Shown here piece by piece: positions 614 through 40,589 of a stretch of DNA of 40,589 nt. The stretch lies in the UHGV virus genome UHGV-0397188. The stretch is one strand, 5' to 3'. Source of the DNA: a virus. Both the position numbers and the translations under genes were made by a program. Positions within the stretch are counted from its first letter, which is position 1. Each line of letters starts with the position of its first letter. The notes below the pieces were generated by a model, which saw only the letters and a list, made by a program, of their open reading frames with translations, was not told where the DNA came from and did no database searches.

Positions 614-615
614 TG

Positions 616-676: not shown

Positions 677-692
677 AATAGATCATGTACAT

Positions 693-720
693 AGAGGGCG
701 GCAAGACCGCTCTCTTTTTA
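693..720 (+). terminator. rho-independent terminator after the major tail gene
   Basis: agagggcgg / ccgctctct stem followed by a TTTTT run. Confidence 0.55.
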
Positions 721-735
721 ATGGAGGAATAAAAA

Positions 736-1134: not shown

Positions 1135-1484
1135 TTGATGGTGTAGGGTTTGAAGAATACTACAAAGAAGCAGCTTTGAATTGTTTTCGGTATCTGGGTT
1201 TCAAGAGCTTTGAAGAAGTGGACAGGTTGACGATCCCGGAATACACCCTGCTTATGGAAGCTGTGCAGCTAAGAGAAGTAGATAAGGACTATCGAAATCA
1301 TCTGCAAGCATTCCTGAATTTTGCTGTGAAAGCAGAGAAAAAGGTCGGAAAGAATAAGACTAAACCAGTTTATCAGAGATTCAGAAAGTTTTTTGATTAC
1401 GAAAAAGAAGTAGATCGTGTGAGGAACCGAAAGCAAAAAAATGAAAGATTGGACATAATCGGCAGAATGATGAAAGGAGAGTGA
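736..1484 (+). CDS. tail assembly chaperone G-T fusion made by a programmed -1 frameshift at GGGTTTC (1026..1032)
   Basis: The downstream frame is open from 1008 to 1484 and overlaps the G ORF in the -1 register. A canonical X_XXY_YYZ heptamer G_GGT_TTC sits in the correct phase (zero-frame codons ggt and ttc at 1027 and 1030). This is the conserved G/GT arrangement of siphoviruses. Confidence 0.6.
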
Positions 1485-1488
1485 TGGC

Positions 1489-6187: not shown

Positions 6188-9100
6188 TGAATGAAATCAG
6201 AATTGCCGTACTGAATCCACATGACAGGGTGCTTGCATTTTTGGATAACACCCATCGAAACTCTATGCATTATTGGAACGATGAGCTCCATGAATATCTG
6301 CAGGGGACAGCGAATACATACGCATTTACGGTAAGTTCCAAACACGAGGATGCGGCGTATATCGTAGAAGGGAATAAAGTAGCCTTTGTATATAACGGAA
6401 AAGACTACTATCTGAATATCGTACATGTGGAAAAGGATGAATTTACAGTTACTGCGACAGCATGGTCTTTAAGTTTCGAATTGATCAATGAGAATGTGGG
6501 TGCGTACAAATCTGAAAGCGCAATGAGCTTTGAGGAATATGTAACTGCCTTTGATCCGGAACGTACCGTGCGGATCGGGATCAATGAAGTGTCAGATAAG
6601 CGGATTTCAAACGAATGGACAGGTGAGGCAACGGTACTGTCCCGTTTATTTTCCGTGGCGAATGTATTCGATGCGGAGATTGAGTTCCAGACTGTGTTAA
6701 ATGATGATTATTCACTGAAAGAAATTGTAATGAACGTGTATCGGGAACACTCAGACAATAACACGGGAGTTGGGGAGTTCCGGGGAGATATCAAACTGCG
6801 GTACGGGAAAAATGTTACCGGCATCCGGAAGGAATCCAGTATCGAAAATCTGTACACCGGTATCCGTCCAACAGGAAAGGATGGACTGACTATACAGGGA
6901 ATTGAGAAAGAAGAGCTGGATGAGAACGGCGTAGTAGAGTTTTATACACAAGGTCCAGATATCCGGGCGCCGCAGGCAAGGGACAGATTTCCATCAAACC
7001 TGATAAACAAGGAAGATGGATACATCTTTATGCCAAAATCCTACGATACGGATAACAAAGACAAACTGTACAGTATGGCGCTATCGGACTTGAGAACAGC
7101 ATCTGAACCGGTCGTGACTTATGATGTGACGGGATACTTTGATACCGCTATCGGAGATACCGTGGAGATCGAAGATGAGGAGTACGTTCCTACCTTATAC
7201 TTGAGTGCAAGAGTATCGGAGCAGGTTCGCAGTTTCACGAATCCGCAAGCAAACAAGACAGTCTTTACCAATTTTAAAGAGCTGCAGTCGGAAATCTCGG
7301 AAGATTTGCTGCAGAAAGTAGAGGATCTGATTAACAAAACAAAGATTTACACCTGCTCCATTGCCACAAACAACGGCATCATCTTTAAAAATGGTATCGG
7401 CAGCACTACTCTGACAGCTTACGCTTACGATAACGGCGTGGACGTCACGGGCAATCTGGAAATCCGGTGGAGTAAAGATGGGACAGAGTTTTACGTTGGC
7501 AAGAGTGTTACGGTAAATGCTACGGACGTGGATACAAAGGCGGTGTACTCATTTGAGGCTCTAGAAAATGGGATAAAACGTGGGTATTACGAGGTCACAA
7601 TCACGGATGTAATGGATGGAGAGGATGGAAAAGACGGGGAACAGGGTCCGCAAGGTGAGAAAGGAGAGCAAGGCGAACAGGGACCTCCGGGTCCACAAGG
7701 CGCTCCGGGATTGGATGGTATACAGGGTCCAAAAGGGGATCAGGGAATTCCGGGAAAAGATGGGAAGGACGGAAAAACACAGTACACCCACATTGCTTAT
7801 GCAAACAGCGCAGACGGTAGGACAGATTTTTCCGTGTCCGACAGTAATAGGGAATATATCGGAATGTATGTTGATTTTGCGCAAAATGACAGCGCAGACC
7901 CGACAAAATACGCATGGAGTAAGATCAAAGGCACAGACGGGGCGATCGGAACACCCGGAAAGCCGGGAGCTGATGGAAAGACCCCGTATCTACATATCGC
8001 CTACGCAAACAGTGCTGATGGAAAGACGGGATTTTCCACCACGGATGGTACAAATAAGCTCTATATCGGGCAGTACACGGATTATACACAGGCAGATAGT
8101 ACAGATGCTACGAAGTATACATGGACAAAAATAAAAGGAGAACAGGGGGAACGTGGGCTACAAGGGCTGCAAGGAGAAAAAGGCGAACAGGGGATTCCTG
8201 GAACAGCTGGTGCGAATGGAAAGACCAGTTATTTCCACATCAAGTATTCTTCTGTGGCAAAGCCGACAACGTTCAGTCAGATGACAGAGACGCCGTCTGC
8301 TTATATTGGAACTTATGTGGACTTTGTACAGGAAGATTCTACAGATCCTGCAAGATATACCTGGTCACGTTTCCAAGGAACCCAGGGTCCCCAGGGAACG
8401 CAGGGAATTCCGGGAACAAACGGCACAAACGGCAAGACAAGTTATCTGCACATTAAATATTCCAATGATGGAGGAAAAACGTTTACCGGAAACAGCGGAG
8501 AAGATGTGGGAACGCATATCGGTACTTGTGTGGATTACAATCAGTCCGATCCTGCAAGTGTTGGATCTTATAAGTGGGCGAAGATTAAAGGAGAACAAGG
8601 TGCTACAGGACCACAAGGAGCAACGGGACCACAAGGGCCGGCGGGGACATCAGGAAGAGGGATAAAAACCATTACAGAATATTATTTGATTTCTTCCGCA
8701 AAAACAGGAATTACAACAGCGTCAAGCGGTTGGAGTACATCAGTTCCGACGATGACAGCAACAAATAAATACTTGTGGAACTATGAAAAATTTACGTTTA
8801 CAGATAATACCACAGCGACCACTACGCCAAAAATAATCGGGATATACGGAGACAAAGGAACAACAGGAGCTACTGGTCCGCAAGGACCTCAAGGAAATGC
8901 AGGTGCAACAGGTCCCCAGGGGCCACAAGGAGCGACAGGCCCGAAAGGACCGCAAGGGGCAACTGGCGCAACGGGGCCGCAAGGAGCAACTGGAAACGGA
9001 ATAAAATCTATCACGAATTATTATCTTGCAACGGCAAGCGGAAGCGGTGTGTCGGCGTCCACATCAGGATGGACTACAACTGTACAAGCAATAACGGCGT

Positions 9101-10047
9101 CAAAAAAATATCTGTGGAATTATGAAGTTGTTACCTATACAAATGGTAGCACGTATCAATCAGCACCATGTATCATCGGAGCATATGGTGATAAGGGAGC
9201 GACCGGTGCTACAGGAGCAACAGGACCAAGTGGCATAATTGTATCTTCTACGGCTCCGTCAAATCCTAAAGTTGGCCAGTTATGGCAGACAGCAAGTGGA
9301 GAGCCGATTAAGAGATGGGATGGAAGTAGGTGGGTGATCCATTATATTTCTGTTGATAACTTAAACGCACAGACTTTAAGTGCGATAGCGGCAGATCTTG
9401 GAACTGTAACTGCCGGACTTATTAAGGATAAGAATGGAACAATGCTTATCGATGTTACATCCGGAAAGATTATTAGCAAGAAAATCGTGCAAGGAGCAGT
9501 GGAAAATGTTGCGTCATTGAGTAATGCGTATTTGGCTTTCTCCGGTAAGGCTCCGACAACAGATCGAGCTACTATGAGCGTGAACTTGCAAAACATCATG
9601 TTTACAAATGAAAATACGGGAAAAGCAACGACAATCCAGTTTGAGGATGAAATGATATATGCAAGAAATTCTGTATCCCCACGTATAAGCATATATGCGT
9701 ATCGCAATTACGATTCCGGCACCGTGAAAGGTCCATATACAAGCACAAACTCCGCAAATAACATCCGTGTAGAGTTAAAAAGGAGAGGGTGTATGGTAAC
9801 ATGTAATATCACAATGCTTGCACAATTTCCGAACAGCGGAAGTTTCGGAGCGTTTGATGAGGTGCGAATCCCTATTGGGTATCGCCCGGTGCTCGACATC
9901 AGAACACCTTACAACGAGGTGTCCGGCTCCTCGATCTTTGGGACCGGTCGATATATAATTGGAAAAGACGGTGGAATTACAATCTATGTCAATAATCCAA
10001 ATTGGACAGAGCGACATTTGTCTACCACATGGATTACGGAAGACTAA
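6187..10047 (+). CDS. tail-associated protein / tail fibre (Tal-like N-terminus; collagen-like Gly-X-Y tracts and tandem modular repeats; C-terminal receptor-binding region)
   Basis: 1286 aa immediately after Dit. It carries several Gly-X-Y runs. A module of about 47 aa ([12 protein letters not shown]...KYxWxKIKG) occurs four times and a module of about 70 aa (GIKxITxYYL...KYLWNYE...YGDKG) occurs twice. Confidence 0.7.
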
Positions 10048-11032: not shown

Positions 11033-11122
11033 ATGAGCGAACAGAACGAATTTGGCAGAGTATCCGCAGAGGAACTGGAAAAGGCATTTGAAACTGAAAA
11101 TCAGGAGGAAGAAAAAGAATGA
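11033..11122 (+). CDS. small acidic peptide (29 aa) translationally coupled to the endolysin
   Basis: Strong GAGAGGAGGTGAG RBS then ATG; the stop overlaps the amidase ATG (ATGA); very acidic C-terminus (ENQEEEKE). Confidence 0.35.
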   Translation: MSEQNEFGRVSAEELEKAFETENQEEEKE

Positions 11123-11925
11123 AAATTGGCTTAAGGGGAGGACACTCCCCAAATTGTAAAGGTGCAATCGGTCTGATCGATGAGCAGGCAGAAGTACGGA
11201 AGATCTACAATGAGCTTGTACCAATGCTACAGGCAGTCGGTCATACTGTGGTTGATTGTAATTCCAACGCATCCAATGTGTCCAGCGAGTTATCTGACGG
11301 AATAAATAAGGCGAATAGTGCCGGGTGCGATATTTACGTAACTTTGCACATGAATGCGGCAGGAGCGGAATCAGCTGGCGGTACAGAGGTGTGGTTATAC
11401 GATGCATCTAACCAGACAATGAACACGATCGCAAGCAATATCTGCCAGAATTTTGCAAATAAAGGATTTGCTAACCGTGGTGTAAAGTACAGTTCGGGAT
11501 ACCATGATCTGAATGCATCCAATATGCCCGGTATGATCGTAGAGACATTATTTTGCACCGGCACAGATGATGTAGCACGGTATCGTAGTTTAGGCACAAA
11601 AGGAATTGCTGAGCTGATTGCAAAGGCAATCGACAGTAGAGCGTCTGCATGCAGCGAACAAAAAAATAACCAGAATACAGGAATCGAACAGGAAGGAGAA
11701 GAAGAGATGAAATGTTTATTTACAGTAGAGGGAAAAGGTGCAGTGTATTATTTTGACGGTCAAAAAGTAATAACATTGGGTCATCCAGACGAATTAAAAA
11801 TCATCCAGCAGATTTACAAGGACAACAATGGTAAGGACATGCCGTGTTACAAGTGGAGTCCTAAAGCGCCATGGTATGCAAGGCTCATGTCGGTAATTTA
11901 CAGTAAAGAGACCACATCTATCTAA
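11119..11925 (+). CDS. N-acetylmuramoyl-L-alanine amidase endolysin (Amidase_3 / CwlA-like catalytic domain with a C-terminal binding domain)
   Basis: An N-terminal 'KIGLRGGHSP' motif and the later 'VTLHMNA' and 'VETLFC' motifs match the zinc amidase_3 pattern; located after the holin. Confidence 0.8.
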   Translation: MKIGLRGGHSPNCKGAIGLIDEQAEVRKIYNELVPMLQAVGHTVVDCNSNASNVSSELSDGINKANSAGCDIYVTLHMNAAGAESAGGTEVWLYDASNQTMNTIASNICQNFANKGFANRGVKYSSGYHDLNASNMPGMIVETLFCTGTDDVARYRSLGTKGIAELIAKAIDSRASACSEQKNNQNTGIEQEGEEEMKCLFTVEGKGAVYYFDGQKVITLGHPDELKIIQQIYKDNNGKDMPCYKWSPKAPWYARLMSVIYSKETTSI

Positions 11926-12080: not shown

Positions 12081-13556
12081 TTACGGCATGTGGTAGTAGT
12101 ATACTTTAAGTTCGTCTTCTTCTCGATCATAGACAATTTTCTCCACAACGCTTCTAAGCACCTCATTCTTGGTCGTCGCATCTACGGAATCGGATGAGAG
12201 AATATCGTACACATTTTTTACTCTCATCAACATATCATTGTCCTCATTTTTGGTGCTTATTTTCTCTTCTTTAAGCTCAGACAGTTGTTTTTCTAGACTG
12301 TCTTTCTCTCCCTGCACAATCCGTTTATTTTCCTTGTATTCTTCCATAGTATCAATTCCATTCATGTATGCCTCTTTGATTCTCTGCAGCTTCACGTCGA
12401 TTTTCTTTATCTGATCTTCCAGTATGGTTTTCAAGTCCGCAGTATCTTCCGTTTTAGCCTCAATCTTCCGGTAGGTTATTTTTCCAGTATCCAATACAGA
12501 CTTAATTGATTCCAATACCGCAGGCTCAAGCTTTAGAGAGCTTATGGAGTTCTTCGCCGCACATTTTCCCTTGGAGTATCCGTAACAGCGAAAATAGCAG
12601 TATGTCTGCTTATTGTTTTCAATCTTACAGGCAGTCATCGTCCTTCCACACGCTGGGCATTTAACGATCCCAGATAGCCAGTGCTTGTACGTGCTTGCCG
12701 GTCTCGCTCCACGTGGGCGGTATTCTCTCTTGTATCGCTCCTGTGCCTTATCAAACAATTCCTTACTAATGATTGCAGGTTGTTCTCCCTCAGCGATAAT
12801 CCACTCGCTTTCTGGCCGGATCTCTTTCGATTCATTAATCGTCCGATTCCACCGCACCATCCCGCAGTAAGTGGGGTTCTGTAGGATATATTCGATAGAC
12901 CTTCGTTCAAATTCTTTTCCGCGGGACGTTTTAAAGTTGCGACTATTCAAAAGCCGTGCGATTTCAAATAGTCCCATGTTGCTGTGCACATACTTTTCAA
13001 AAATCAGCTTCACAACTTCCGCTTCTTCTGGAACAATGACTGGCGGTTCTTTATGTGATACAATCTTGTACCCAAGTGGTGGGCGTGCTTGGTATCCACC
13101 TCGTTCCGCTTTTTCTCGCATTCCTCTTGTTACTTCTCCGGATAGACGGACAGAGTAATATTCATCCATCCACTCAATAATTCGTTCGATCAGAGAGCCG
13201 AATGGACCATCTACCAGTGGTTCAGAGATGCTTATTACGTCCACGTTATGCTTTTTCTTGAGCAAGGACTTGTATACAATACTTTCCTCTTGGTTTCGTG
13301 CAAATCGGCTGAATTTCCATACCAGTATGGCATCTGCCGGATGATCGGATGATTTCGCAAGACCAATCATTTTTTGGAACTCTGGGCGTTTATCCGCTTT
13401 TCTTCCGGATATTCCGAGTTCAAAAAAGATTTTCGATACTACATATCCGTGACTTTTCGCGTAATCTTTCAATAGCTTCGCTTGAGAATCCGGGGATAAT
13501 TCATCCTGTTTTCCTGTGGATACACGTACATATCCAAAGGCATATTTTGTTTCCAT
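12081..13556 (-). CDS. large serine recombinase (phage integrase)
   Basis: An N-terminal resolvase catalytic motif 'YVRVSTGKQ', a recombinase domain, a zinc-ribbon (CPACG...CYFRC...C) and a C-terminal coiled coil; AAGGAG RBS. Confidence 0.9.
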   Translation of the reverse strand: METKYAFGYVRVSTGKQDELSPDSQAKLLKDYAKSHGYVVSKIFFELGISGRKADKRPEFQKMIGLAKSSDHPADAILVWKFSRFARNQEESIVYKSLLKKKHNVDVISISEPLVDGPFGSLIERIIEWMDEYYSVRLSGEVTRGMREKAERGGYQARPPLGYKIVSHKEPPVIVPEEAEVVKLIFEKYVHSNMGLFEIARLLNSRNFKTSRGKEFERRSIEYILQNPTYCGMVRWNRTINESKEIRPESEWIIAEGEQPAIISKELFDKAQERYKREYRPRGARPASTYKHWLSGIVKCPACGRTMTACKIENNKQTYCYFRCYGYSKGKCAAKNSISSLKLEPAVLESIKSVLDTGKITYRKIEAKTEDTADLKTILEDQIKKIDVKLQRIKEAYMNGIDTMEEYKENKRIVQGEKDSLEKQLSELKEEKISTKNEDNDMLMRVKNVYDILSSDSVDATTKNEVLRSVVEKIVYDREEDELKVYYYHMP

Positions 13557-13921: not shown

Positions 13922-14803
13922 TTAAAAAATATACAAATCTTTAATTTTTTGATTGATTTTTTCCATATTTTCTTCTGATAAAGACACTCCTGAAAGGACA
14001 CCTCTTATGTTGCGTGGGTCAAAGATTCGCATTTTACTAATAGTAGTAATTTGATTAACAAGCGCAATACTACCTTCTTTCATTCGTGATATTTCAAGTC
14101 CAATTTTATCCAGATATTCTTGTTGGGCTTTATTATGTGTTTTCTTATCTTGCCACAGTTGCTCTAATTTCCTGGTGGCATCTAAATATTTTTCTGCTTT
14201 TTGAAGTTCGTCTTGGCAGGCATCTTTATCATCGCTTTGTTTATATTTTTCAAGCGATTCACCCGCTAAATCGACAAGAACAGTAAAAGCTTTTTGTGCA
14301 GATAGTATTTCTTCTTGCTCGTCTTTTAATGCTTTTGAGATAGTATCATATTTGATTTTTAGTGAACGATATATTTCATTCCCTAAATCAACACTATTTG
14401 CATGAATTTCTTTATTATCTTTTTGGGAAGTAAGAGGAATAACAGTAACGACTGGAGAGTTATGCGCATTTTTATTGTCTAAGACAATACCATAATGCAA
14501 CCCTCCGTACTCATTACCTATGTTAAATCCGAAGTTTAATTTTACAATATTCCCACGTTTGTATGCTATGTTTCTAGTTGGTTCAAAGCTTTCTTCAAAG
14601 CCAATCATTCGAACATAGTCTTTGAGCCAATATGAAATTAAGTGAGCCTTTTTTAAATGTTGTTCGGATGAATCATTTATAAGACATTCAAGAAGATTAT
14701 TCAATGAACGAATAGCAGATTTTTTATTTTGTACAACATCTTCTTTTGCAAATTCTTTTGACAATGTAATTTTCCTCTCTTTCCTCTTTCCGTATTTTAA
14801 CAT
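13922..14803 (-). CDS. MazF/PemK-fold domain protein with N- and C-terminal extensions (293 aa; long coiled-coil C-terminal region)
   Basis: Residues about 80-165 ('KRGNIVKLNFGFNIGNEYGGLHYGIVL...VVTVIPLTSQ...SVDLGNEI') match the MazF/Kid/NdoA core pattern RGd[IV]...G.Eq.G.RP.lV......vVvPiTS. AT-rich. No clear RBS at the annotated ATG, so the start is uncertain. Confidence 0.55.
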   Translation of the reverse strand: MLKYGKRKERKITLSKEFAKEDVVQNKKSAIRSLNNLLECLINDSSEQHLKKAHLISYWLKDYVRMIGFEESFEPTRNIAYKRGNIVKLNFGFNIGNEYGGLHYGIVLDNKNAHNSPVVTVIPLTSQKDNKEIHANSVDLGNEIYRSLKIKYDTISKALKDEQEEILSAQKAFTVLVDLAGESLEKYKQSDDKDACQDELQKAEKYLDATRKLEQLWQDKKTHNKAQQEYLDKIGLEISRMKEGSIALVNQITTISKMRIFDPRNIRGVLSGVSLSEENMEKINQKIKDLYIF

Positions 14804-16258: not shown

Positions 16259-16699
16259 TTACACTATGCTTTTAAATTCCATAATCTTTTCATCATATCC
16301 AGCCAGTCTTGCAATCTGACTTTTCGTCATCCCTGGATTTTCATAGATTATGGAATCTGGTATCAGAAGTTCTGCGGCGAATGTGTTGGCTTCGTTTTCT
16401 TCTTTGAGCTTAGAAAATAATGTGCTTCCGTAGAAATAGCAATCATTTTTTCTGTGTAATTGAGAATGTCCCAATTCGTGACTCAAAATAAATTTCTCCA
16501 TGGGAGTTCCTATTATTTTTTGGTTAAGCATAATGCATTTTTGTCTTTTAATAAGTAAGTAGCAACCTAATACATCACCGATATCACATATTTGATAAAT
16601 TGTATTTGTGTAATCACATAATTCATATGGATTTCTTGTGCCGTATTTACTTGTTAAATTATCCACTATTGTTTTTACATCTTGCTTCAAGGTAATCAC
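16259..16699 (-). CDS. ImmA/IrrE-family metallopeptidase (anti-repressor protease)
   Basis: HELGHSQLH (HExxHxxxH) motif; starts with a GTG immediately after the repressor stop; classical ImmR-ImmA pair. Confidence 0.75.
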   Translation of the reverse strand: MITLKQDVKTIVDNLTSKYGTRNPYELCDYTNTIYQICDIGDVLGCYLLIKRQKCIMLNQKIIGTPMEKFILSHELGHSQLHRKNDCYFYGSTLFSKLKEENEANTFAAELLIPDSIIYENPGMTKSQIARLAGYDEKIMEFKSIV

Positions 16700-17116
16700 C
16701 TACTTTTTATTTTTGTTCGGATTAAACTTGACCTTGTTGATTTCCTTAACAGTAGTTACCAATGACTTTAATTGCTGTTCGAATAAAATTTTTGTTTCTG
16801 GGCTCATTTCAGTACCGTCGAAAAACAGTGGTGCCCCATCTTTTGCTTCTAATTTTTCCATTAAGTCATTTACTGTCTTGGAAATGTCACGCTCATCTCT
16901 CGTTGTCAATGATGCTGCATTATTCTGATGTTCCTCATAGAAATATGTTAATGGTACATCGAAGTAATCAGCTATCTTAGTAAGCTTCTCATCTTTTGGT
17001 TTACTTCGCCCATTCTTCCAATCAGAAAAAGTAGACTTAGTTATACCAGTAGCTTTCGCAACGTCCGCATCTTTACATCCTTTTTCATCTCTTAACTTGC
17101 AATAAATTTCATACAT
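16700..17116 (-). CDS. XRE-family HTH repressor (CI/ImmR-like)
   Basis: The N-terminal HTH 'TGITKSTFSDWKNGRSKPK' is paralogous to the Cro-like gene 17313..17498. The probable start is the second ATG, which has a GAGGTG RBS. It is divergent from cro. Confidence 0.75.
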   Translation of the reverse strand: MYEIYCKLRDEKGCKDADVAKATGITKSTFSDWKNGRSKPKDEKLTKIADYFDVPLTYFYEEHQNNAASLTTRDERDISKTVNDLMEKLEAKDGAPLFFDGTEMSPETKILFEQQLKSLVTTVKEINKVKFNPNKNKK

Positions 17117-17134
17117 AATACACCTCATAAAAAA

Positions 17135-18287: not shown

Positions 18288-19064
18288 ATGAACAATTTAA
18301 CAGTATTCGAACAAAACGGTCAGCTACTCACCGACAGTAGAGAAGTAGCAATGATGGTGCAGATGAACCATTCAGATTTAATAAGAAAAATCAAAGGGTA
18401 CATGAAACATCTTAACGAAAGCAATTTTGCTTTGGTTGATTTCTTCATCGAATCAGCTTACACGGATTCAAAAGGAGAAGTAAGACCATGCTACCTCTGT
18501 ACAAAGAAAGGATGCGACATGATCGCCAACAAAATGACCGGAAAGAAAGGTGTCATTTTCACAGCTACATATATTGAAGCATTCGAGAAGATGAAAGATT
18601 TCATCGAAAAGGGAACACAGTACGTTGGCATTCCATTAAAAGAACAGGTGGAATCACTGGAAGTGGTAGCAAGCATGTTAAGAATGAACGATGCAAGCAA
18701 GTTGCTGATGCTGAAAGGGTTCTATGATTCTTACCATATTCCAACAGGATTCTTACCGAATTATGAGTTTAACGGCAATCGGGAAATGAAGTCACTCACA
18801 GCACTGCTGAAAGAAAATAATCTCGGAATCAGTGCAGTTCAGTTTAATAAGAAGCTTCTATCTGCTGGAATCTTGGAAGAAAAGGAACGCAAGTCAAGTA
18901 AGGGAATGGTGAAGAAGTTCAAATCACTGACGGAGAAAGGTTTGAAATACGGCGAGAATGCAGTCAGTCCTCATAATCAGAAAGAAGTGCAGCCGTTGTA
19001 TTACAGTGACACGTTTAATGAACTGTTTGATATGGTGATGACTGCTGACTTATCGGAATGGTAG
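18288..19064 (+). CDS. Rha-family phage regulatory protein / antirepressor
   Basis: N-terminal 'LTVFEQNGQLLTDSREVAMMVQMNHSDLIRKI' matches the Rha (phage_pRha) pattern; AGGAGG RBS. Confidence 0.6.
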   Translation: MNNLTVFEQNGQLLTDSREVAMMVQMNHSDLIRKIKGYMKHLNESNFALVDFFIESAYTDSKGEVRPCYLCTKKGCDMIANKMTGKKGVIFTATYIEAFEKMKDFIEKGTQYVGIPLKEQVESLEVVASMLRMNDASKLLMLKGFYDSYHIPTGFLPNYEFNGNREMKSLTALLKENNLGISAVQFNKKLLSAGILEEKERKSSKGMVKKFKSLTEKGLKYGENAVSPHNQKEVQPLYYSDTFNELFDMVMTADLSEW

Positions 19065-20561: not shown

Positions 20562-20702
20562 ATGTTGGAAGTACTTGGAAGTATCGCTACTATTGCAGCA
20601 ACAATAGTACAAGCTGTAAGCGTAGTGCGTCTTATGAAGATTGAAAAGGAACTGAATAAAATGTACAAAAGGAGATCAAATGAACAAATTAAAAGTAATT
20701 GA
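20562..20702 (+). CDS. small hydrophobic peptide (46 aa), hypothetical
   Basis: An ATG ORF with one TM-like segment that overlaps the start of the next gene; below the ORF-track cutoff. Confidence 0.2.
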   Translation: MLEVLGSIATIAATIVQAVSVVRLMKIEKELNKMYKRRSNEQIKSN

Positions 20703-21444
20703 AAATGATCTTGTCCCAGTATACGAGACAAGCACAGGAGAAAAAGTAGTATACGGCTCAGAGCTGCATGAAGTTCTGGGGGCACCAAGCGTTTACCGTG
20801 AATGGTCAAAACGCCGCTTAACGGATATTGATGCGGAAGAAGATGTAGATTTTACCACCGTAGAAATTCCTACGGTGTCCGGTGGTGCGCCAAAGAAAGA
20901 CCATATCATCAAACTGGATACTGCCAAAGAAATGGCAATGCTTGAGCGGAACGAAAAAGGAAAGCAAGTACGCAGATATTTCATCCGGGTAGAAAAGAAA
21001 TACAAAGCGGCATCTCTTGCCACACAAGAACTCTCACCGCAGTTACAGGTCATGATTAACTTGGAAATTGAGCAGAAGCGTCAGGCAGAGAAGCTTGAGC
21101 ACGTGGAAGAACGGATCGAAAGCATCCGTGAGGTTGTTGCAATCGATACAACGTCATGGAGAGAAGATACCGGAAGAATCTTGAGAAAAATCGGTATGGA
21201 GTGCGGAGACAGCAAGTCTTATCAAGATGTAAGAGCGGAATCCTATCAGTTGTTAGAAAAACGCATGGGAGTGAATGTAAAACAGAGACTCACAAACAAG
21301 CGCAGGAGAATGGCAGATGAGGGTGTTTGCAAATCCAGAAGAGACAAATTGAATTATCTTGATGTGATTGCTGATGATAAGAAACTGATTGAGGGATATA
21401 CGGCTATCGTAAAAGAGTTGGCTATTAAATACGGAGTGGCGTAG
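20680..21444 (+). CDS. AntA/KilAC-type phage antirepressor
   Basis: The N-terminus 'LVPVYETSTGEKVVYGSELHEVLG...YREWSKRRL' fits the AntA domain pattern; AAAAGGAG RBS. Confidence 0.6.
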   Translation: MNKLKVIENDLVPVYETSTGEKVVYGSELHEVLGAPSVYREWSKRRLTDIDAEEDVDFTTVEIPTVSGGAPKKDHIIKLDTAKEMAMLERNEKGKQVRRYFIRVEKKYKAASLATQELSPQLQVMINLEIEQKRQAEKLEHVEERIESIREVVAIDTTSWREDTGRILRKIGMECGDSKSYQDVRAESYQLLEKRMGVNVKQRLTNKRRRMADEGVCKSRRDKLNYLDVIADDKKLIEGYTAIVKELAIKYGVA

Positions 21445-32092: not shown

Positions 32093-32253
32093 TTGTGGAC
32101 TACTGCAAGTTACTCCTTTTTCCTATAAATTTTGATTGTGTACTTGGTTATTTTGGTTTTGTTGCTGTTATAATTCTTTCATTTTGCAGTAGTCCTAAAT
32201 TCTTAGCATCCAGAGATGGGTGCTTTTATTATGCTTAAAAGGTGGTGAGTCCT

Positions 32254-32823
32254 ATGACAGAAAAACAGAAAATATTTGCAGATGAGTACTTGATTGATCT
32301 AAATGCCACACGGGCTTACCGCGCGGCGTATCCGAATTGCAAAAAAGATAGTTCGGCAGATGCAGCAGCGAGAAAATTACTCGGAAATACTCGGATTCAA
32401 ACATATATCACAGAACGAATGGAAGAACGGCAGAAACGAACGGAGATCACCCAGGACATGGTGCTACAGGAACTAGCTGCGATTGCTTTTTCCAAGGCTT
32501 CTGACTACGCGAAAGTAGTTGAGAAACAGGCTACAGCAGAAGTAGATGGAAATATTATTCCACTCGTAGGAGAGGACGGAGAACCGATTCTGTATCGGAC
32601 CGTAGAATTGGAACTTACAGATAACCTTACGGAGGAACAGCAGCGAGCCCTCGGAACGATTAAAAAGGGGCGCGATGGATTGGAACAGAAGCCCTGCGAC
32701 AAGGTAAAGGCGCTTGAGCTTCTCGGCAGACATTTAGGTATGTGGAATGACAAGCTGGATGTAGCAGGAGATATGGACATGAAGATTGTAGTAGACTATG
32801 GTGATGAGGATGAAGAAAGTTAA
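32254..32823 (+). CDS. terminase small subunit
   Basis: 'KIFADEYLIDLNATRAYRAAYPNCK' is typical of terS; AAAAGGTGGTGAG RBS; precedes terL. Confidence 0.75.
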   Translation: MTEKQKIFADEYLIDLNATRAYRAAYPNCKKDSSADAAARKLLGNTRIQTYITERMEERQKRTEITQDMVLQELAAIAFSKASDYAKVVEKQATAEVDGNIIPLVGEDGEPILYRTVELELTDNLTEEQQRALGTIKKGRDGLEQKPCDKVKALELLGRHLGMWNDKLDVAGDMDMKIVVDYGDEDEES

Positions 32824-34066
32824 TGTTGGATTTAACAGAAATTTCAAAGAGTTTAATGAGTGCAAGAAACGATATCGACTGGCAAAAGGCTCTGCCGGAT
32901 CCGGAAAGTCGGTAAACATTGCACAGAATTTTATCATCAAACTTGGTGATCCGAAGTACAAAGGTGCGAATCTTCTGTGCGTCCGGAAAGTAGACACAAC
33001 AAACAAAGATAGTACTTATGCGGAGTTGAAGAGTGCAATATACAAGATATACGGGGATAAAGCGGGATTATTCTGGCAGATCAGAAGCAATCCAATGGAG
33101 CTGATCTCTAAAGTAACTGGAAATAAAGTGATTTTTCGAGGAATGAAAGACGATGGACAGCGAGAAAAAGTAAAGTCCATCACATTCGATGTCGGAAAAT
33201 TAACATGGATATGGATTGAAGAAGCAACGGAGCTATATGAAGCGGATGTCGATATTCTCGATGACCGACTCAGAGGTGACTTGTCATTCAATCCATTTTT
33301 GTATTATCAGATCACGTTCAGCTTCAATCCGGTGTCAGCAACGCACTGGTTAAAAGCAAAATATTTCGACATAAAAAGTGATGATGTATACACACACCAG
33401 TCTACGTACCTGCAGAACCGGTTCATAGATGAAGCGTATCACCGGCGCATGATGATGCGTAAAGAACGGGATCCTGATGGATATCGGATTTATGGACTCG
33501 GTGAATGGGGAGAAACTGGCGGTCTGATTCTTACAAATTATGTGGTCGAGGAATTCAACACATCTTCTGATCGATTTGATTACATGGTAAATTCACAGGA
33601 TTTTGGATTCAACCATGCGAACTGTATCGGGGAGATTGGATTCAAGGATGGAGATATCTACTTATGCCGGGAATTGTATGTATTTGAAAAAGATACGTCC
33701 GAAATCATACAGCTGGCTGAGGGAAAATTCCAGAAGCGAATTACCATGTATTGCGATTCTGCCGAGCCAGACAGGATTAAGATGTGGCAGAAAGCAGGAT
33801 ACAGAGCATGTCCGGTCAAGAAAGAGCCGAACAGTGTAAAAGCGCAGATTGATTATTTGAAGCAGCATACCATACATATCCATCCGTCTTGCGTAAACAC
33901 GACTAAGGAGATTCAGCAGTGGAAATGGAAAAAGGATGAGAAAACGAACACATTCACGGATGAGCCAGTGAATTTCTTTGATGATGCAATGGCGATGCTC
34001 AGGTATTCTATTGAGCAAGAGAGAAAAGGTAAGGTGAAGTTAAAGACCTTTAGAGGAGGAATATAA
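32798..34066 (+). CDS. terminase large subunit (PBSX/Terminase_3 family)
   Basis: Walker A 'GSAGSGKS'; a nuclease-domain acidic residue pattern; 422 aa; overlaps terS. Confidence 0.85.
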   Translation: MVMRMKKVNVGFNRNFKEFNECKKRYRLAKGSAGSGKSVNIAQNFIIKLGDPKYKGANLLCVRKVDTTNKDSTYAELKSAIYKIYGDKAGLFWQIRSNPMELISKVTGNKVIFRGMKDDGQREKVKSITFDVGKLTWIWIEEATELYEADVDILDDRLRGDLSFNPFLYYQITFSFNPVSATHWLKAKYFDIKSDDVYTHQSTYLQNRFIDEAYHRRMMMRKERDPDGYRIYGLGEWGETGGLILTNYVVEEFNTSSDRFDYMVNSQDFGFNHANCIGEIGFKDGDIYLCRELYVFEKDTSEIIQLAEGKFQKRITMYCDSAEPDRIKMWQKAGYRACPVKKEPNSVKAQIDYLKQHTIHIHPSCVNTTKEIQQWKWKKDEKTNTFTDEPVNFFDDAMAMLRYSIEQERKGKVKLKTFRGGI

Positions 34067-34067: not shown

Positions 34068-35426
34068 ATGAATGGGAAAAGACCATACAGATTGCCGGAA
34101 CCGCTTTTATGTTCCGCTGATAAAGAAATCAATATGACATTGATAGACGAATACATTAGAAAGCATGAAGAACGAATGCCAAGGTACAGATACCTTGAGA
34201 ATCTATACAAAGGATTCCATGATGTATTCCGTCTTCCGGAAAAGGAGTCATGGAAGCCGGATAACCGACTGGCAGTGAATTTCCCAAGGTATATCACAGA
34301 GACCTTTTTGGGATATGCCTATGGGATTCCAGTTAAAAAATCACATCCAGACGAAAAAATAAAAGATGCGATCCTTGAATTTGACCGGGATAATGATATC
34401 TCTGACCAGGAATATGAGTTGGCGAAGAAGTGCTGTATCTACGGACATGCATTCGAGTATTTTTACCAGGACGAAGAAGCAAAGACAAAGACAGTAGTCT
34501 GCAATCCAAAAGAACTGTTTGTTGTCTACGATGATACCGTAAAGAGCCGCGCTCTATTTGCTGTCAGATATGGGAAAAAAGACGATAATGTCACAAGGTA
34601 TGGCGAGATACTTACAAGGACAGAAATTATCCCATTTGACGGAGAAAAGATGCAGGAGGGAATGCCGAACCCATATGGTCGCATCAACTGTGTTGAATAT
34701 GTACTGAACGATGAGAGAATCGGTCTGTATGAAGAAGTTGCCGGCATGGTAGAAACATACAACCGAGTGATCGGAGAAAAGGCGAATGATGTAGATTCTT
34801 TCGCAGAAGCGTATCTTGCAGTGCTGGGCGCCGAACTGGACGAGGAAGGCGTTTATAAAATTCGCGACAACCGGATTATAAACCTTTATGGTACAGACAA
34901 TGCAAAAGATATTATCGTGCAGTTTCTTGGCAAACCTACGGCAGACGGAACACAGGAAAATCTTTTGAATCGGCTCGAGGATTTGATTTATCAGACAAGT
35001 ATGGTAGCGAATATCTCAGACGAATCGTTTGGAAATGCCTCCGGAACTTCTCTCGCATACAAATTACAGTCCATGAGCAATCTTGCACTAACATTTGACC
35101 GTAAAGTTGAAAAGTCCATGAGGAAACGATATAAGCTGTTTTGCTCCCTTGCAACGAATGTGTCAGATCGGGACGCATGGAAAGATATTGATTTTACAAT
35201 GAGCAGAAATATCCCAAAGAATCTCCTTGAAGAAGCGCAGACAGCACAGGCGCTTGAAAGCATCGTGTCCAAGGAAACGCAGCTGCAGGTCCTCTCGATC
35301 GTTAAGGATGTTTCAGAGGAGATAGATCGAATGGAGAAAGAGGAAGAAAAGAAGCAGCAAACAATCGTAGAGAAGCGGATGTTCGGAGGTGCGGCAGATG
35401 AGCAGCAGGACGTACTGGAAGAATAG
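34068..35426 (+). CDS. portal protein (SPP1 gp6 family)
   Basis: GAGGAGG RBS; 452 aa; follows terL; sequence resembles the SPP1 portal. Confidence 0.8.
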   Translation: MNGKRPYRLPEPLLCSADKEINMTLIDEYIRKHEERMPRYRYLENLYKGFHDVFRLPEKESWKPDNRLAVNFPRYITETFLGYAYGIPVKKSHPDEKIKDAILEFDRDNDISDQEYELAKKCCIYGHAFEYFYQDEEAKTKTVVCNPKELFVVYDDTVKSRALFAVRYGKKDDNVTRYGEILTRTEIIPFDGEKMQEGMPNPYGRINCVEYVLNDERIGLYEEVAGMVETYNRVIGEKANDVDSFAEAYLAVLGAELDEEGVYKIRDNRIINLYGTDNAKDIIVQFLGKPTADGTQENLLNRLEDLIYQTSMVANISDESFGNASGTSLAYKLQSMSNLALTFDRKVEKSMRKRYKLFCSLATNVSDRDAWKDIDFTMSRNIPKNLLEEAQTAQALESIVSKETQLQVLSIVKDVSEEIDRMEKEEEKKQQTIVEKRMFGGAADEQQDVLEE

Positions 35427-36678
35427 AGAGGAAGAACAGCGGAAGAAGAATATCAAGGACGAAGCTGAATACGCGAAAGAGATTGAGAAGATCTATGCGA
35501 ACATGATGGATGAAATCCAGAAAGAGATCAATGGATTTTACACGCGATATGCAAAAGCAGAGGGAATCACAATTGCAGAAGCGAAGAAGCGAGTATCCAA
35601 AATGGACATTGATGCGTACAGCCGGAAGGCGGAGCAGTATGTAAAGGATAAGGATTTTTCGAAGGAAGCCAATGAGGAAATGAGACTCTATAACGCAGCT
35701 ATGAAGATTAACCGGCTTGAAATGCTGAAAGCAAATATCGGAATGCATCTTGTCGGTGGATTTGATGAGCTTCAGAAGTATTTTGACCAGATCCTGACGG
35801 AGAAAACGCTGGAAGAATTTGAAAGGCAGGCTGGAATTCTTGGCAAATCCATTCAGAACAATGCGAAGATGGCACATGCAATTGCAAATGCTTCATTCCA
35901 CAATGCAAAATATTCGGACCGTATTTGGATGTATCAGGATATGCTTAAAGCCGAATTATCGAAACTCTTACAAACAGGTCTGATACAGGGAAAGAATCCA
36001 AGAGTATTGGCAAAACATCTTACCAAACTGTTTGGAGTAAGCCGGGAAAATGCAGAGCGACTGATGATAACGGAACTGTCAAGGGTGCAGGCAGAAGCGC
36101 AGAAACAGTCTTATATCCGCAATGGATTTGATGAGTATGAGTTTATCGCGGAGCCGACAGCCTGCCAGATCTGCAGGGCTTTAGACGGAAAACATTTCAA
36201 GGTATCGAAAATGATGCCCGGAGAAAATGCACATCCAATGCATCCACGCTGCCGGTGCAGTACAGCGGCATATACGGATGATAAAGAGTATCATGAGTGG
36301 CTGGACGGGTATTCTGAACATGGGATGAACTTTGAAACTTGGAAGAAGAGGGTTGAAAAGAAAACGGATTCTGGTATAATAAAGGCAGATAGAACAGTCA
36401 GCGGACATTCTGGTCCTCCTAAAATGGCAGAGGCGGGAATGGTAATAGATCACATTGGAAAAGATGGAAAAGTAGATGTAAGAGCTTTTTACGGAGAGTC
36501 AAAATTAAAATATAAAGATATCCATACAACTGCGCATGGGAATCCCAAGCAGCATCCTTATGGAGAACATGGGGAACACGTACATGATTATACATGGGGA
36601 GAAGACGGCAGACTGAAGGATAAGACAACTCGCGAATTAAGCGAAGAGGAAAGAAAGGAGAATGGGGATATATTATGA
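35398..36678 (+). CDS. head morphogenesis protein (SPP1 gp7 / Mu F-like)
   Basis: 'EPTACQICRALDGKHFKVSKMMPGENAHPMHPRCRC' is the conserved gp7-family core; ATG after GGAGGTG. Confidence 0.8.
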   Translation: MSSRTYWKNREEEQRKKNIKDEAEYAKEIEKIYANMMDEIQKEINGFYTRYAKAEGITIAEAKKRVSKMDIDAYSRKAEQYVKDKDFSKEANEEMRLYNAAMKINRLEMLKANIGMHLVGGFDELQKYFDQILTEKTLEEFERQAGILGKSIQNNAKMAHAIANASFHNAKYSDRIWMYQDMLKAELSKLLQTGLIQGKNPRVLAKHLTKLFGVSRENAERLMITELSRVQAEAQKQSYIRNGFDEYEFIAEPTACQICRALDGKHFKVSKMMPGENAHPMHPRCRCSTAAYTDDKEYHEWLDGYSEHGMNFETWKKRVEKKTDSGIIKADRTVSGHSGPPKMAEAGMVIDHIGKDGKVDVRAFYGESKLKYKDIHTTAHGNPKQHPYGEHGEHVHDYTWGEDGRLKDKTTRELSEEERKENGDIL

Positions 36679-36914
36679 ATAAAGATGAATTAAGACAAAT
36701 TTTATCTGAGTGTTGCAATGATATTTCTTTCTCTTACAGAGGATTGTCATCTGGAGTGACAGTTGAAGTTCATAATTATGTTCCGACATATCAAGTGTGG
36801 CATGGCGATGACGTGAAAGAGTATGATAATGTGGATAAAGTTATGAATGATAAATTTTATAGTGGAAAGTCGTTAAACGATCTAGTAAAAGAAGTAGAAA
36901 TTGAAGCAATGTAA
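36675..36914 (+). CDS. hypothetical protein (AT-rich moron within the head module)
   Basis: 79 aa; visibly lower GC than its neighbours; followed by a terminator. Confidence 0.4.
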   Translation: MNKDELRQILSECCNDISFSYRGLSSGVTVEVHNYVPTYQVWHGDDVKEYDNVDKVMNDKFYSGKSLNDLVKEVEIEAM

Positions 36915-36971: not shown

Positions 36972-37259
36972 TTGATTGAGGTGAGAATCCGTCCAGAGCG
37001 AATTGAAATCTCTGGACACGCCGGGTACACAGAACCTGGAAAAGACATTGTTTGTGCTGGCGTTACGGCGCTTACGCAGACGCTGATCCAGTCGATTGAT
37101 GACTTAACGGATGATGAAATAGAATACAGAATATCTCCCGGAAAGGCTGAGATAGAATACAGGAATCTGTCAGAGAAATCAAAAACTCTGGTGGATTCCT
37201 TTTTCGTTGGCATTCGCTTGATTGCCGATGAGTTTCCGGATTATGTAGCAATTATGTAA
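36972..37259 (+). CDS. Prp-family cysteine protease (ribosomal-processing protease homolog)
   Basis: 'IEISGHAGYTEPGKDIVCAGVTALTQT' carries the Prp catalytic His and Cys signature; TTG start after GGAGGTG. Confidence 0.7.
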   Translation: MIEVRIRPERIEISGHAGYTEPGKDIVCAGVTALTQTLIQSIDDLTDDEIEYRISPGKAEIEYRNLSEKSKTLVDSFFVGIRLIADEFPDYVAIM

Positions 37260-37342
37260 TTCGCGCCCAAGTCTTGAAGGCGTAAAAAGCTAGGGGAAAG
37301 GACCATGAAGAATGTCATTAAACTTTTAGGAGGTAAAGAAAA

Positions 37343-37918
37343 ATGAAGAGCAGGATGTTTAGAATGCTGCAGTTATTTGCAGAAGAAACCGTAGATCACA
37401 CAGCAGAACCTGATGCGGTGAAAGATAGTGTTAATCCGGAAAACACATCTGATGATAGCGGGGAAGAAAAAAAGTACACAGACAAGGATGTGGATGCGAT
37501 TGTAAACAAAAGATTCGCAAAATGGAAAACTGAGCAGGAACAGGCGGTAAAGAGTGCTAAGGAAGAGGCAGAAAAGCTGGCAAAAATGAATGCTGAGCAG
37601 AAACAGAATTACGAGATCGAGAAGTTGCAAAAAGAGAATGAAAAACTGAAGCAGGAGGCTGCAAAGGTTGAGCTTAGCAGAAGCGCCACAGGCATTCTTG
37701 CAGAAAAAGGAATTGAAGCAACGCAGGATGTTCTTGATTTTGTTGTAGGGAATGACGCTGATGATACGAATGCAAAAATTGATAAGCTTGTAAAAATCGT
37801 GGAATACCAGCTTAAGAAAGCCGAGATCGCCAGAGCAACCGGAACTACACCAAAAACCATGACGAACTCAGGAAGCCAGTTGTCTGAATTTGAAAAGAGA
37901 CTTGCAAAGTATAAATAA
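37343..37918 (+). CDS. scaffolding protein with an N-terminal Prp-cleavable leader (MKSRMFRMLQLFA|EE)
   Basis: Coiled-coil, acidic, immediately upstream of the capsid gene; GGAGGTAAAGAAAAATG RBS. Confidence 0.7.
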   Translation: MKSRMFRMLQLFAEETVDHTAEPDAVKDSVNPENTSDDSGEEKKYTDKDVDAIVNKRFAKWKTEQEQAVKSAKEEAEKLAKMNAEQKQNYEIEKLQKENEKLKQEAAKVELSRSATGILAEKGIEATQDVLDFVVGNDADDTNAKIDKLVKIVEYQLKKAEIARATGTTPKTMTNSGSQLSEFEKRLAKYK

Positions 37919-37931
37919 GGAGAATGTGAAG

Positions 37932-38849
37932 ATGAAGAATAGAGAATTTATGATGTTACAGTTATTTGCGGCAGGAGACAACAATGATATGCCGATAAGG
38001 AGCTACCAGCTTGAGTTTAAAAGTCTTTTGCAGGCAGTATTTAAAAAGATGTCCTATTTCGCGGATTTTTTCGGCGGCGAACTTGAGGCACTGGATGGAG
38101 TCAGAGAAAACGAAACAGCCTTTTATGTAAAAACATCAGACATTCCGGTTGTGGTTGGAACTGGGTACGATAAAACAGCTACGAAAGCTTTTGGAACGGG
38201 AACCGGTAATTCTAGCCGTTTCGGAGAAAGAACAGAGATTATTTACACTAACACACCGGTTAATTACTCTTGGGGATGGAATTTCCATGAGGGGATTGAC
38301 CGACACACGGTAAACAATGATTTTGACGTTGCGGTAGCAGATCGCTTGGAACTGCAGGCGAGGGCTAAGACAAAGCAGTTTAACAAGCAGCACGGAAAAT
38401 TTATTTCCACATCTGCCGGAAAAACTTTAAGTGTTACTGATTATACAGAAGACAATGTATTAAAGCTGTTTAATGAGCTGTCTAAGTATTTTAACAACAT
38501 CGAAGCAGTTGGAACGAAAAAAATTAAGGTTTGTTCCGATCTGTACAATGCCGTTGTGGATCATCCTCTGAATACGACTGCTAAAAACTCTACTGTAAAC
38601 ATTGATGGCAATGAGGTTGTGAAGTTCAAGGGATTCCTTGTAGAGGAGATTCCGGATGAGCTCTTCCAGTCCAAAGAATGTGCCTATGCATATATTGCCG
38701 GAGTTGCAAAAGCATTTACTGGAATTAACACAGCGAGAACGATCGAATCCGAGGATTTTGACGGTGTAGCTTTGCAGGGAGCTGGTAAGGCTGGAGAATT
38801 TATTCCGAATGACAACAAGAAAGCTGTAGTTAAAGTGTCGGTGGGGTAG
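37932..38849 (+). CDS. major capsid protein with an N-terminal Prp-cleavable leader (MKNREFMMLQLFA|AG)
   Basis: ATG after AAGGAG (the ORF track starts at 37890); 305 aa; position after the scaffold gene; leader homologous to the scaffold leader. Confidence 0.75.
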   Translation: MKNREFMMLQLFAAGDNNDMPIRSYQLEFKSLLQAVFKKMSYFADFFGGELEALDGVRENETAFYVKTSDIPVVVGTGYDKTATKAFGTGTGNSSRFGERTEIIYTNTPVNYSWGWNFHEGIDRHTVNNDFDVAVADRLELQARAKTKQFNKQHGKFISTSAGKTLSVTDYTEDNVLKLFNELSKYFNNIEAVGTKKIKVCSDLYNAVVDHPLNTTAKNSTVNIDGNEVVKFKGFLVEEIPDELFQSKECAYAYIAGVAKAFTGINTARTIESEDFDGVALQGAGKAGEFIPNDNKKAVVKVSVG

Positions 38850-40273: not shown

Positions 40274-40589
40274 ATGGATCCACAGCAAGAATTATTTACA
40301 GAATTACTTACAGAGATCAAAGCATTAGGATGTGACGTATATGATGGCTTCTTACCGCCGGATGGTACGCCGTATCCTTTTGTTTATCTCGCAGATAGCC
40401 AACAGTCAGATGATGCCAATAAAACGGCTGTGTTTGGCAATGTGTATCAGACAATTCATGTCTGGCACAACAATCCAAGACAGAGGGGAACGGTGTCAAA
40501 AATGCTGCTGGCGATCAAAAGCGCATGCAGAAGACTGGATCATACCGAAAATTTTGCATGGAATGTCCGGAATGTAAACCAGAGGATAC
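40274..40589 (+). CDS. tail completion-type protein, 3'-truncated by the window edge
   Basis: An ATG ORF open to the end of the window; expected position before the major tail gene, which is at the window start. Confidence 0.4.
   Translation, partial: MDPQQELFTELLTEIKALGCDVYDGFLPPDGTPYPFVYLADSQQSDDANKTAVFGNVYQTIHVWHNNPRQRGTVSKMLLAIKSACRRLDHTENFAWNVRNVNQRI

Follow-up and report, generated by a model that had tools for sequence, protein, structure and literature searches.

What would a protease of the Prp family do among the head genes of a phage, and which proteins would it cut? The question is raised by positions 36,972 to 38,849 of the virus genome UHGV-0397188 (40,589 bases, hereafter the window), where a small gene for such a protease lies directly upstream of the scaffold and major capsid genes. 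A sequence-only reading of this stretch had recognized the His/Cys signature of Prp in the gene at 36972-37259 and Prp-type leaders, that is, short N-terminal extensions ending in a cleavage motif, on the scaffold and capsid proteins; both attributions are borne out here. Our analysis establishes the family membership, intact catalytic residues, and fold of the protease, confirms that the leaders are present and that they strongly co-occur with its gene, and adds a third leader on the major tail protein. We consider it likely that the gene encodes an active Prp-family protease that cuts these three leaders.

A Prp-family protease gene in a phage head module

The open reading frame (ORF) begins with a TTG codon, 7 nt after a GGAGGTG ribosome-binding site, and this weak start suggests that the protease is made in low, catalytic amounts. 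Its product matches the Pfam family PF04327 (Peptidase_Prp; E=2e-21, 76.5 bits for a gathering score of 27) over residues 1-92, which correspond to profile positions 1-89 of 90, and it also matches PHROG 4478 "peptidase" (2e-28); its matches in a sequence search of the PDB are SMU.848 of S. mutans (E=4e-9), the S. pneumoniae homologue, and S. aureus Prp (4peo/7kld). In the phmmer alignment to the last of these, where GHAGYTEPGKDIVCAG is aligned with GHADHGEYGHDIVCAG, GHAG...DIVCAGVT forms the catalytic region, and His16, Gly23, Asp25, and Cys28 of the phage protein are equivalent to His22, Gly29, Asp31, and Cys34 of S. aureus Prp (SaPrp), such that the catalytic Cys and His, which the sequence-only reading had proposed to look for by alignment, are both present. 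The equivalents of these four residues are invariant in the alignment of phage Prps, the catalytic His and Cys are kept among sequences only 27-35% identical, and the His motif GH[AS] is found in 143/143 unique viral Prp ORFs, a set collected by its Cys motif alone. A broader alignment of the family, in which the N-terminal part of SaPrp is provisional, served for search patterns only; the catalytic residues are read from the phmmer alignment. As to the fold, an AF2 model of the phage protein (mean predicted local distance difference test score 89.4) shows the elements E-E-H-E-E-H-E, as in the beta-beta-alpha-beta-beta-alpha-beta fold of Prp, and the top 14 PDB matches of this model in Foldseek are all Prp structures (template modelling score 0.91 for 2g0j, 0.83 for 7kld, and 0.82 for 1s12). 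By sequence and modelled fold, 36972-37259 is a full-length Prp-family cysteine protease with an intact His/Cys dyad and predicted activity.

By profile score and gene context, it is not the housekeeping ribosomal-processing orthologue. Eleven NCBIfam equivalog models for "ribosomal-processing cysteine protease Prp" match it, all far below their cut-offs (the best at 41.5 vs 171 bits), and the gene does not lie between rplU (L21) and rpmA (L27), the position that defines ribosomal Prp, but has phage genes for a minor head protein and the scaffold on its two sides. A scan of bacterial genomes, limited to one genome per species, returned Prp loci of both prophage and host type: the window protein is at most 41% identical to any host Prp sampled, and its prophage-type relatives, the best of which reaches 69% identity among the matches listed, occur in Lachnospiraceae and neighbouring groups (Faecalicatena contorta, F. 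fissicatena, Hespellia stercorisuis, Mediterraneibacter, Anaerostipes, and Blautia producta). Near-identical Prps are also present on metagenome contigs. For 175/177 phage-context sequences, the nearest neighbour is another phage Prp, and a rough neighbour-joining tree (about 97 columns, low resolution) contains an all-phage clade of 112 unique sequences; of these results we use no more than the nearest-neighbour count and the fact that a large all-phage clade exists. The low identity to host enzymes, the phage nearest neighbours, and the NCBIfam scores below cut-off together argue against a recent capture from a host.

No head-module gene of the window has a Pfam or PHROG match to the canonical prohead protease families (HK97 gp4, ClpP, S49), and no second head protease was found in the window, in which the sole other protease-like gene encodes an ImmA-type metalloprotease (16259-16699, minus strand). 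A conserved partner gene upstream of Prp was considered and dropped: a small ORF precedes Prp in the window, in Acutalibacter phage Fontainebleau, and in Brochothrix phage BL3, but these ORFs have no PHROG family in common, those of Fontainebleau and BL3 matching none at all.

Leaders on structural proteins and their distribution across phages

The three predicted leaders of the window are as follows, with the scissile bond placed between F and A (hereafter F|A):

37343-37378, plus strand: scaffold leader, residues 1-12, MKSRMFRMLQLF then AE; predicted mature N-terminus AEETVDH...
37932-37967, plus strand: capsid leader, residues 1-12, MKNREFMMLQLF then AA; predicted mature N-terminus AAGDNNDMPIRSYQ... 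(AAGDNN...)
86-112, plus strand: leader of the major tail protein (86-613, 175 aa), residues 1-9, MFETGLQLF; predicted mature N-terminus AEAVSGKKIV...

The scaffold protein, with the N-terminus MKSRMFRMLQLFAEE, matches DUF4355 (1.4e-30) and PHROG 172 (2.2e-40). The capsid protein, which reads MKNREFMMLQLFAAGDNND / MKNREFMMLQLFAAGDNN from the ATG at 37932, matches PHROG 840 (3.9e-119), the profile beginning at residue 16; a longer ORF with a TTG start at 37890, as proposed by the program that listed the ORFs, was ruled out by homologues and by the ribosome-binding site, both of which favour 37932. The major tail protein matches PHROG 238 (1.2e-51) and TIGR02126 (TP901-1 family; 92.6 bits vs a cut-off of 37), and position 1 of the TIGR02126 profile falls on its residue 10, the predicted P1'; its sequence marks it as a third predicted Prp substrate in the window. 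The sequence-only reading had seen the right type of motif, but its leaders of 13 residues with a cut after the Ala have to be corrected: Prp is known to cleave its substrates between F and A (PMC5744158, PMC9405229), and the predicted leaders are therefore 12, 12, and 9 residues long. Its own forecast of a mature capsid protein starting AAGDNN agrees with the F|A cut and conflicts with the LQLFA| that it had drawn. Nor are the leaders confined to 36972-38849 and to the head, as it had them, since the tail protein begins MFETGLQLF|AEAVSGK and the predicted system takes in the tail as well.

A six-frame translation of the window contains three copies of LQLFA, for 0.05 (300 shuffles) to 0.07 (residue frequencies) expected, and all three lie 5-8 residues from the initiator Met of major structural proteins. 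These three proteins, scaffold, capsid, and tail, are those made in the largest amounts, and they self-assemble. Each of their leaders displays the mark of a Prp substrate, namely L-Q-x-F at the extreme N-terminus followed by a small residue, here Ala, and a six-frame search of the window with a relaxed pattern of the motif found no further N-terminal candidates.

The pairing of protease and leaders recurs in hundreds of phages. IMG/VR scans by protease gave at least 588 viral contigs with a Prp relative, among the matches listed, and a protein search with the phage Prp gave 1007 clusters at 90% identity. Within 105 loci whose Prp is 64-98% identical to that of the window, N-terminal LQxF motifs number 263 on the gene strand vs 5 on the opposite one; at least one leader gene is present in 101/105 of these loci and three in 69/105, the latter also being the number with a leader on the tail protein. 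Where there are three carriers, they are invariably the scaffold (about 190-210 aa), the capsid protein, and the tail protein (about 170 aa). The leader is kept on either of two capsid types, that of the window (about 300 aa) or an unrelated one of about 392 aa (...GLQVF|AAP). The triple pattern also extends to phages whose Prp is only 30-45% identical, including Brochothrix BL3 (with leaders MNLQLF|AE, MNLQKF|AA, and MDLQKF|AG), Latilactobacillus phages, and Acutalibacter phage Fontainebleau and its relatives, and the third carrier in phages with a divergent Prp spans four major-tail PHROG families (238, 158, 1407, and 820). After deduplication, 186 distinct phage-context Prp loci remained, 150 of them with at least 5 kb downstream: three leader genes are found in 87 of the latter, two in 28, one in 22, and none in 13, such that at least one leader-bearing structural gene lies downstream of Prp in 137/150. 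Among the 190 unique leaders found beside phage Prps, P1' is Ala in 170/190, P2' is acidic, and P5 is mostly Asn, Asp, or Gly, with Asn/Asp making up about half. Recurrence in hundreds of phages, with Prps as little as 30-45% identical and with non-homologous capsid and tail proteins, argues that the pairing is not a coincidence of one genome.

Three phages of this survey deserve a separate word. In the clade of Fontainebleau, at least two of the scaffold, capsid, and third (probably tail) proteins carry NLQLF|D, with Asp at P1', and the Fontainebleau Prp has Asn at the position equivalent to Asp31 as well as a longer loop behind its catalytic His. Protease and substrate may have co-varied here. 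In Dorea phage DO134P1 (OP172779, about 3962-4249), the Prp gene is unannotated and has no in-frame ATG, GTG, or TTG start. In Latilactobacillus phage TMW 1.1365 P3 (OQ240257, 3944-4258), the annotated start (MDIVCAG...) removes the catalytic His, the real start being 29 codons upstream, after an AAGGAGG site.

A second IMG/VR sample was picked by capsid homology instead of by protease, and its loci with at least 4.5 kb upstream were kept. In this sample, 34 loci have both Prp and leader, none has Prp without a leader, nine have a leader without Prp, and 20 have neither (Fisher's exact test, p=7e-10, for loci that are not phylogenetically independent). The leaderless capsid proteins begin M-(A/G/T/P/S)-..., as seen in 20 proteins of the sample and in phages PBC1, TMW 1.591 P1, Sabazios, Q33, and A25, and in alignments their initiator Met falls on Ala13 of the capsid protein in the window. 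Leaderless homologues thus start at the predicted P1', as would a mature protein without its tag; they amount to naturally "pre-cleaved" versions, by which the predicted cut site is fixed. Similarly, homologous scaffolds of Prp-less phages (PBC1, BCJA1c, and A25) have no leader, and the scaffold leader is conserved among the relatives of the window phage. Ruminococcus gnavus phages were also considered as Prp-less comparators and proved uninformative, since they share only a head-fibre gene with the window and have a different head module with a canonical prohead protease.

Which enzyme would cut the leaders, and to what end

We infer that cleavage occurs, that it falls at F|A, that it is made by the phage rather than the host enzyme, and, from there, a purpose for the transient leader. 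In the mechanism that we propose, the small Prp would be expressed from the late operon, in which its gene, preceded by those for the portal and minor head protein and followed by that for the scaffold, takes the place that a prohead protease has in other phages. The phage Prp would recognize N-terminal x-L-Q-x-F|A and remove 12, 12, and 9 residues from the scaffold, capsid, and major tail proteins, with the His/Cys chemistry by which S. aureus Prp acts on L27 and on the capsid and scaffold proteins of phage 80alpha. Prps are homodimeric endopeptidases specific to LQxF|A. Recognition would also follow that of SaPrp, in which the P1 Phe stacks on the catalytic His, the P3 Gln orders a flexible loop, and the P4 Leu sits at the dimer interface (PMC9405229). 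The leader would be a portable add-on, mature proteins beginning where leaderless homologues begin. An enzyme borne by the phage would provide the protease at the time and dose of late expression, and it would relieve the leaders of exact mimicry of host L27, an idea supported by the less L27-like leaders found beside phage Prps and by the F|D clade.

As for the purpose, the leader probably delays or coordinates the folding or assembly of the three most abundant polymerizing proteins, by analogy with what has been suggested for 80alpha. In that phage, host Prp cuts the capsid and scaffold proteins at F|A, before the procapsid is completed; capsid cleavage is dispensable, and the scaffold leader is essential for assembly, when cleavage of either protein is not (PMC5744158). 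Since 80alpha needs the scaffold leader but not its cleavage, "maturation" may not depend on cleavage. The discovering group still calls the role of the leader unclear (PMC5744158; 2025 and 2026 preprints).

Several points weigh against an active phage Prp that cuts the three leaders. Leader removal in Prp-carrying phages, the one in the window included, is a prediction from sequence. The Asn/Asp found at P5 of L27-type substrates is missing from the window, where P5 is Met, Met, and Gly. Under the strict [LM]QxF search, 13/150 phage Prp loci show no leader, and these may hold variant motifs or different substrates. The invariance of P4, P3, and P1 is partly by construction, as these positions were set by the search pattern, and the co-occurrence counts come from loci related by kinship rather than phylogenetically independent, the IMG/VR figures being those among the matches listed. 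The nine leader-bearing, Prp-less phages of the capsid-centred sample have no phage Prp within 5.5 kb upstream and in this resemble 80alpha. Finally, Lachnospiraceae L27 leaders themselves read LQ(L/F)F|A, such that host Prp could cut the phage leaders.

These last points feed the most serious alternative, namely that the ribosomal Prp of the host is the main or a sufficient protease, the phage copy being a dosage booster or a safeguard against competition from L27 late in infection. L27 lies immediately downstream of Prp at 49 host-type loci, and its leaders there include MMKMNLQLF|AHKKG (Blautia), MMKMNLQFF|AHKKG (Mediterraneibacter), and MLKMNLQLF|AHKKG (Lachnoanaerobaculum), the Lachnospiraceae pattern being M(M/L/F)KMNLQ(L/F)F|AHKKG. 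The phage leaders are identical to the L27 leaders of their likely hosts, as in Blautia and Mediterraneibacter, from P4 to P1', and differ from them at P5 (Met/Gly vs Asn) and at P2'-P4' (acidic vs His-Lys-Lys). Leader-bearing phages without Prp do exist, moreover, as shown by the nine of the capsid-centred sample, Bacillus phage BCJA1c among these carriers, and 80alpha (PMC5744158). However, their tags stay near Bacillus-type L27, with L(N/D)(L/I)Q(F/Y)F|A (e.g., LRLDIQFF|A or LNLQYF|A), Asn/Asp at P5 in 8/9, and Phe/Tyr at P2 in 9/9, and by this resemblance they look like 80alpha-style users of the host enzyme. Whereas these Prp-less phages mimic L27 closely, the leaders of Prp carriers are relaxed, only about half having Asn/Asp at P5 and P2' being acidic instead of basic; the leader is found in 34/34 Prp-carrying phages of the capsid-centred sample, one clade uses F|D, and each Prp is reported to be tuned to its own L27 leader (review PMC9405229). 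On balance, we regard this host-enzyme explanation as rather unlikely. Independence of head maturation from the host enzyme, which the sequence-only reading had taken as given, is a plausible but unproven extrapolation since Lachnospiraceae L27 leaders also read NLQLF|A, and the phage Prp may add capacity or specificity rather than strict independence.

It is far less probable that the phage Prp mainly targets host L27 or another leader-bearing host protein such as FlhB, in a takeover or rescue, with the structural leaders being a separate matter. L27 is the established substrate of the Prp family, LQLF|A is common to the phage leaders and L27, and the mobile-element L27 protease Rrp rescues a prp deletion (bioRxiv 10.64898/2026.08.10.744006), but the phage gene is part of the late head operon, with its putative substrates encoded just downstream, is missing from related phages with leaderless proteins, and, as a late gene, is probably silent in lysogens. 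Slighter still is the chance that the leaders are never removed and act as permanent assembly or targeting signals, or that the Prp homologue is a non-catalytic, leader-binding chaperone: this would fit the 80alpha scaffold leader, needed uncut or cut (PMC5744158), yet the catalytic His and Cys persist in all 143 viral homologues, also at 27-35% identity, and leaderless homologues begin exactly at the predicted P1'. That the eleven identical nucleotides common to the three gene starts of the window (CAGTTATTTGC) are a translational or RNA signal rather than the trace of a peptide motif can practically be dismissed, as the motif is always N-terminal and in frame and 228 distinct leader sequences use all six Leu, both Gln, both Phe, and all four Ala codons at it, which points to selection on the peptide and not on the nucleic acid.

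The phage, related systems, and significance for Firmicutes siphophages

The window holds the whole genome, circularly permuted, of a temperate siphophage whose host is probably a human-gut Lachnospiraceae, and its closest public record is an unannotated human-faecal phage contig, MT835606 (94.6% nucleotide identity across the head region). Its genes are laid out as follows:

86-10047: tail genes, in the order major tail protein (86-613), chaperone pair, tape measure, Dit, and a 1286-aa fibre
11119-11925: endolysin
12081-13556, minus strand: serine integrase
After the integrase: repressor and ImmA-like metalloprotease, anti-repressors, recombination and replication genes
32242-32823, plus strand: small terminase (Pfam/PHROG matches)
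32798-34066, plus strand: large terminase (Pfam/PHROG matches)
34068-35426, plus strand: SPP1-type portal (Pfam/PHROG matches)
35389-36678, plus strand: Mu-F-like minor head protein (Pfam/PHROG matches)
36675-36914, plus strand: 79-aa ORF of unknown function (PHROG 15041), directly upstream of the Prp gene
36972-37259, plus strand: Prp gene, 95 aa
37343-37918, plus strand: scaffold, 191 aa
37932-38849, plus strand: major capsid protein, 305 aa
38940-39296: collagen-like head fibre, then connector genes up to the end of the window

The head-fibre gene has a collagen-like Gly-X-Y stretch and is 84-92% identical in nucleotides to its counterparts in Ruminococcus gnavus phages, the remainder of whose head modules is unrelated. 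This indicates that the gene was exchanged recently, in mosaic fashion, and hints at the host; the prophage relatives of the window Prp in Lachnospiraceae fit with this identity and with the isolated Dorea phage DO134P1. At the edges, an ORF starting at 40275 leaves the window on the right (40275-40589) and the 3' end of an ORF, with its stop near position 66, occupies the left (1-66); from their position between tail-completion and major tail genes, these are probably two parts of a single neck or tail gene, separated by the window ends. The adjoining ORFs 736-1134 and 1176-1484 match tail assembly chaperone PHROGs, the first over their N-terminal and the second over their C-terminal part, a layout that suggests the usual programmed frameshift. 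On the minus strand, at 16259-17128, an ImmA/IrrE-type metalloprotease (PHROG 87) adjoins a helix-turn-helix repressor; this pair is the usual protease-repressor lysogeny switch and has no relation to virion maturation. Also on the minus strand, in the integrase-lysogeny interval, a 293-aa ORF (13922-14803) matches "antitoxin MazE-like" and "MazF-like growth inhibitor" PHROGs and may be a toxin-antitoxin or defence moron. Two paralogous anti-repressor genes (Ant/Rha-like) lie in the early region, at 18288-19064 and 20680-21444.

Compared with known systems, the phage Prp shares with host Prp (YsxB, MEROPS C108) its family, its fold, its His/Cys dyad, the N-terminal LQxF|A logic, and, by prediction, scaffold and capsid substrates. 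It differs in that its gene lies in a head module and not in an rplU-prp-rpmA operon, in its identity of at most about 41%, and in missing the NCBIfam cut-offs, and also, with respect to both host Prp and 80alpha, in that three substrate classes are tagged in the window, with Met/Gly rather than Asn/Asp at P5 and an acidic P2' instead of His/Ser-Lys-Lys, when the L27-type consensus is MLxx(D/N)LQ(F/L)F|A(S/H)KK (PMC9405229). With canonical prohead proteases (HK97 gp4, ClpP-like, S49-like), it has in common the position of the gene after the portal and before the scaffold and capsid, as well as the predicted trimming of head proteins, but its fold is unrelated, it is of cysteine and not serine type, it would remove a tag of 9-12 residues rather than a delta domain or a whole scaffold, and the tail tube protein, on which prohead proteases do not act, is also a predicted target. 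The capsid-maturation cysteine protease of phage Cp-1, which is said to be the sole further member of MEROPS clan CR, is likewise phage-encoded, of the same clan as Prp, and removes an N-terminal extension of the capsid protein (PMC9405229); by its description, this podovirus enzyme belongs to another family and takes off about 40 residues. Rrp (SP_1145), an alternative bL27 protease encoded by a mobile element in S. pneumoniae TIGR4, is similarly a horizontally carried protease that acts on an L27-type leader (bioRxiv 10.64898/2026.08.10.744006), but it has an Ntn-hydrolase/proteasome-like fold and low specificity and acts on ribosome, not virion, proteins.

The phage Prp family is already present in databases, as PHROG 4478 "peptidase", as "YsxB-like protein [Caudoviricetes sp.]" or "cysteine protease" at NCBI, and as "YsxB (DUF464)" at JGI, and the window phage is one ordinary member of this large, catalogued but undescribed family. 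In the searchable literature, we found no description of a phage-encoded Prp, of its link to leaders, or of the triple substrate set, an earlier remark in Wall et al. 2015/2017 being possible. Prp-type motifs have been reported on the capsid protein of phage 80 and a tail protein of phi13 (PMC5744158, PMC9405229, PMC9261936), and the 2025 and 2026 preprints of the discovering group deal only with host Prp and "some staphylococcal bacteriophages". Prp trimming of phage proteins is known from one system, 80alpha with the host enzyme. The finding also exposes annotation errors, those of the Prp genes of DO134P1 and TMW 1.1365 P3.

On a larger scale, we put forward tentatively, and without leaning toward it as a whole, that phage Prps and L27-like leaders could form a widespread, undescribed virion-maturation system of Firmicutes siphophages, in which one very small cysteine protease, diverged from ribosomal Prp, would co-evolve with portable tags of 9-25 residues that unrelated scaffold, capsid, and tail-tube proteins have acquired again and again by grafting. 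Such a system would coordinate the assembly of heads and tails, free of the specificity of host Prp. There is a medical side to it: Prp is considered as a narrow-spectrum antibiotic target, and gut Firmicutes hold many horizontally mobile Prp paralogues predicted to recognize an L27-like site; if the proposed activity is real, prophage Prps recognizing LQLF|A could, as a side effect, act as a reserve for L27 processing and weaken antibiotics aimed at Prp. For phage biology, phages with their own Prp offer a natural experiment, in which one capsid family exists without a leader, with a leader but no enzyme, and with both; in the last of these states, scaffold, capsid, and tail-tube proteins all bear the tag. 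E. coli is not known to have a Prp, and questions about the leader are directly testable there. Those that the system opens are the role of a transient leader, the co-evolution of specificity between protease and tag, and whether a single protease may coordinate the assembly of head and tail.

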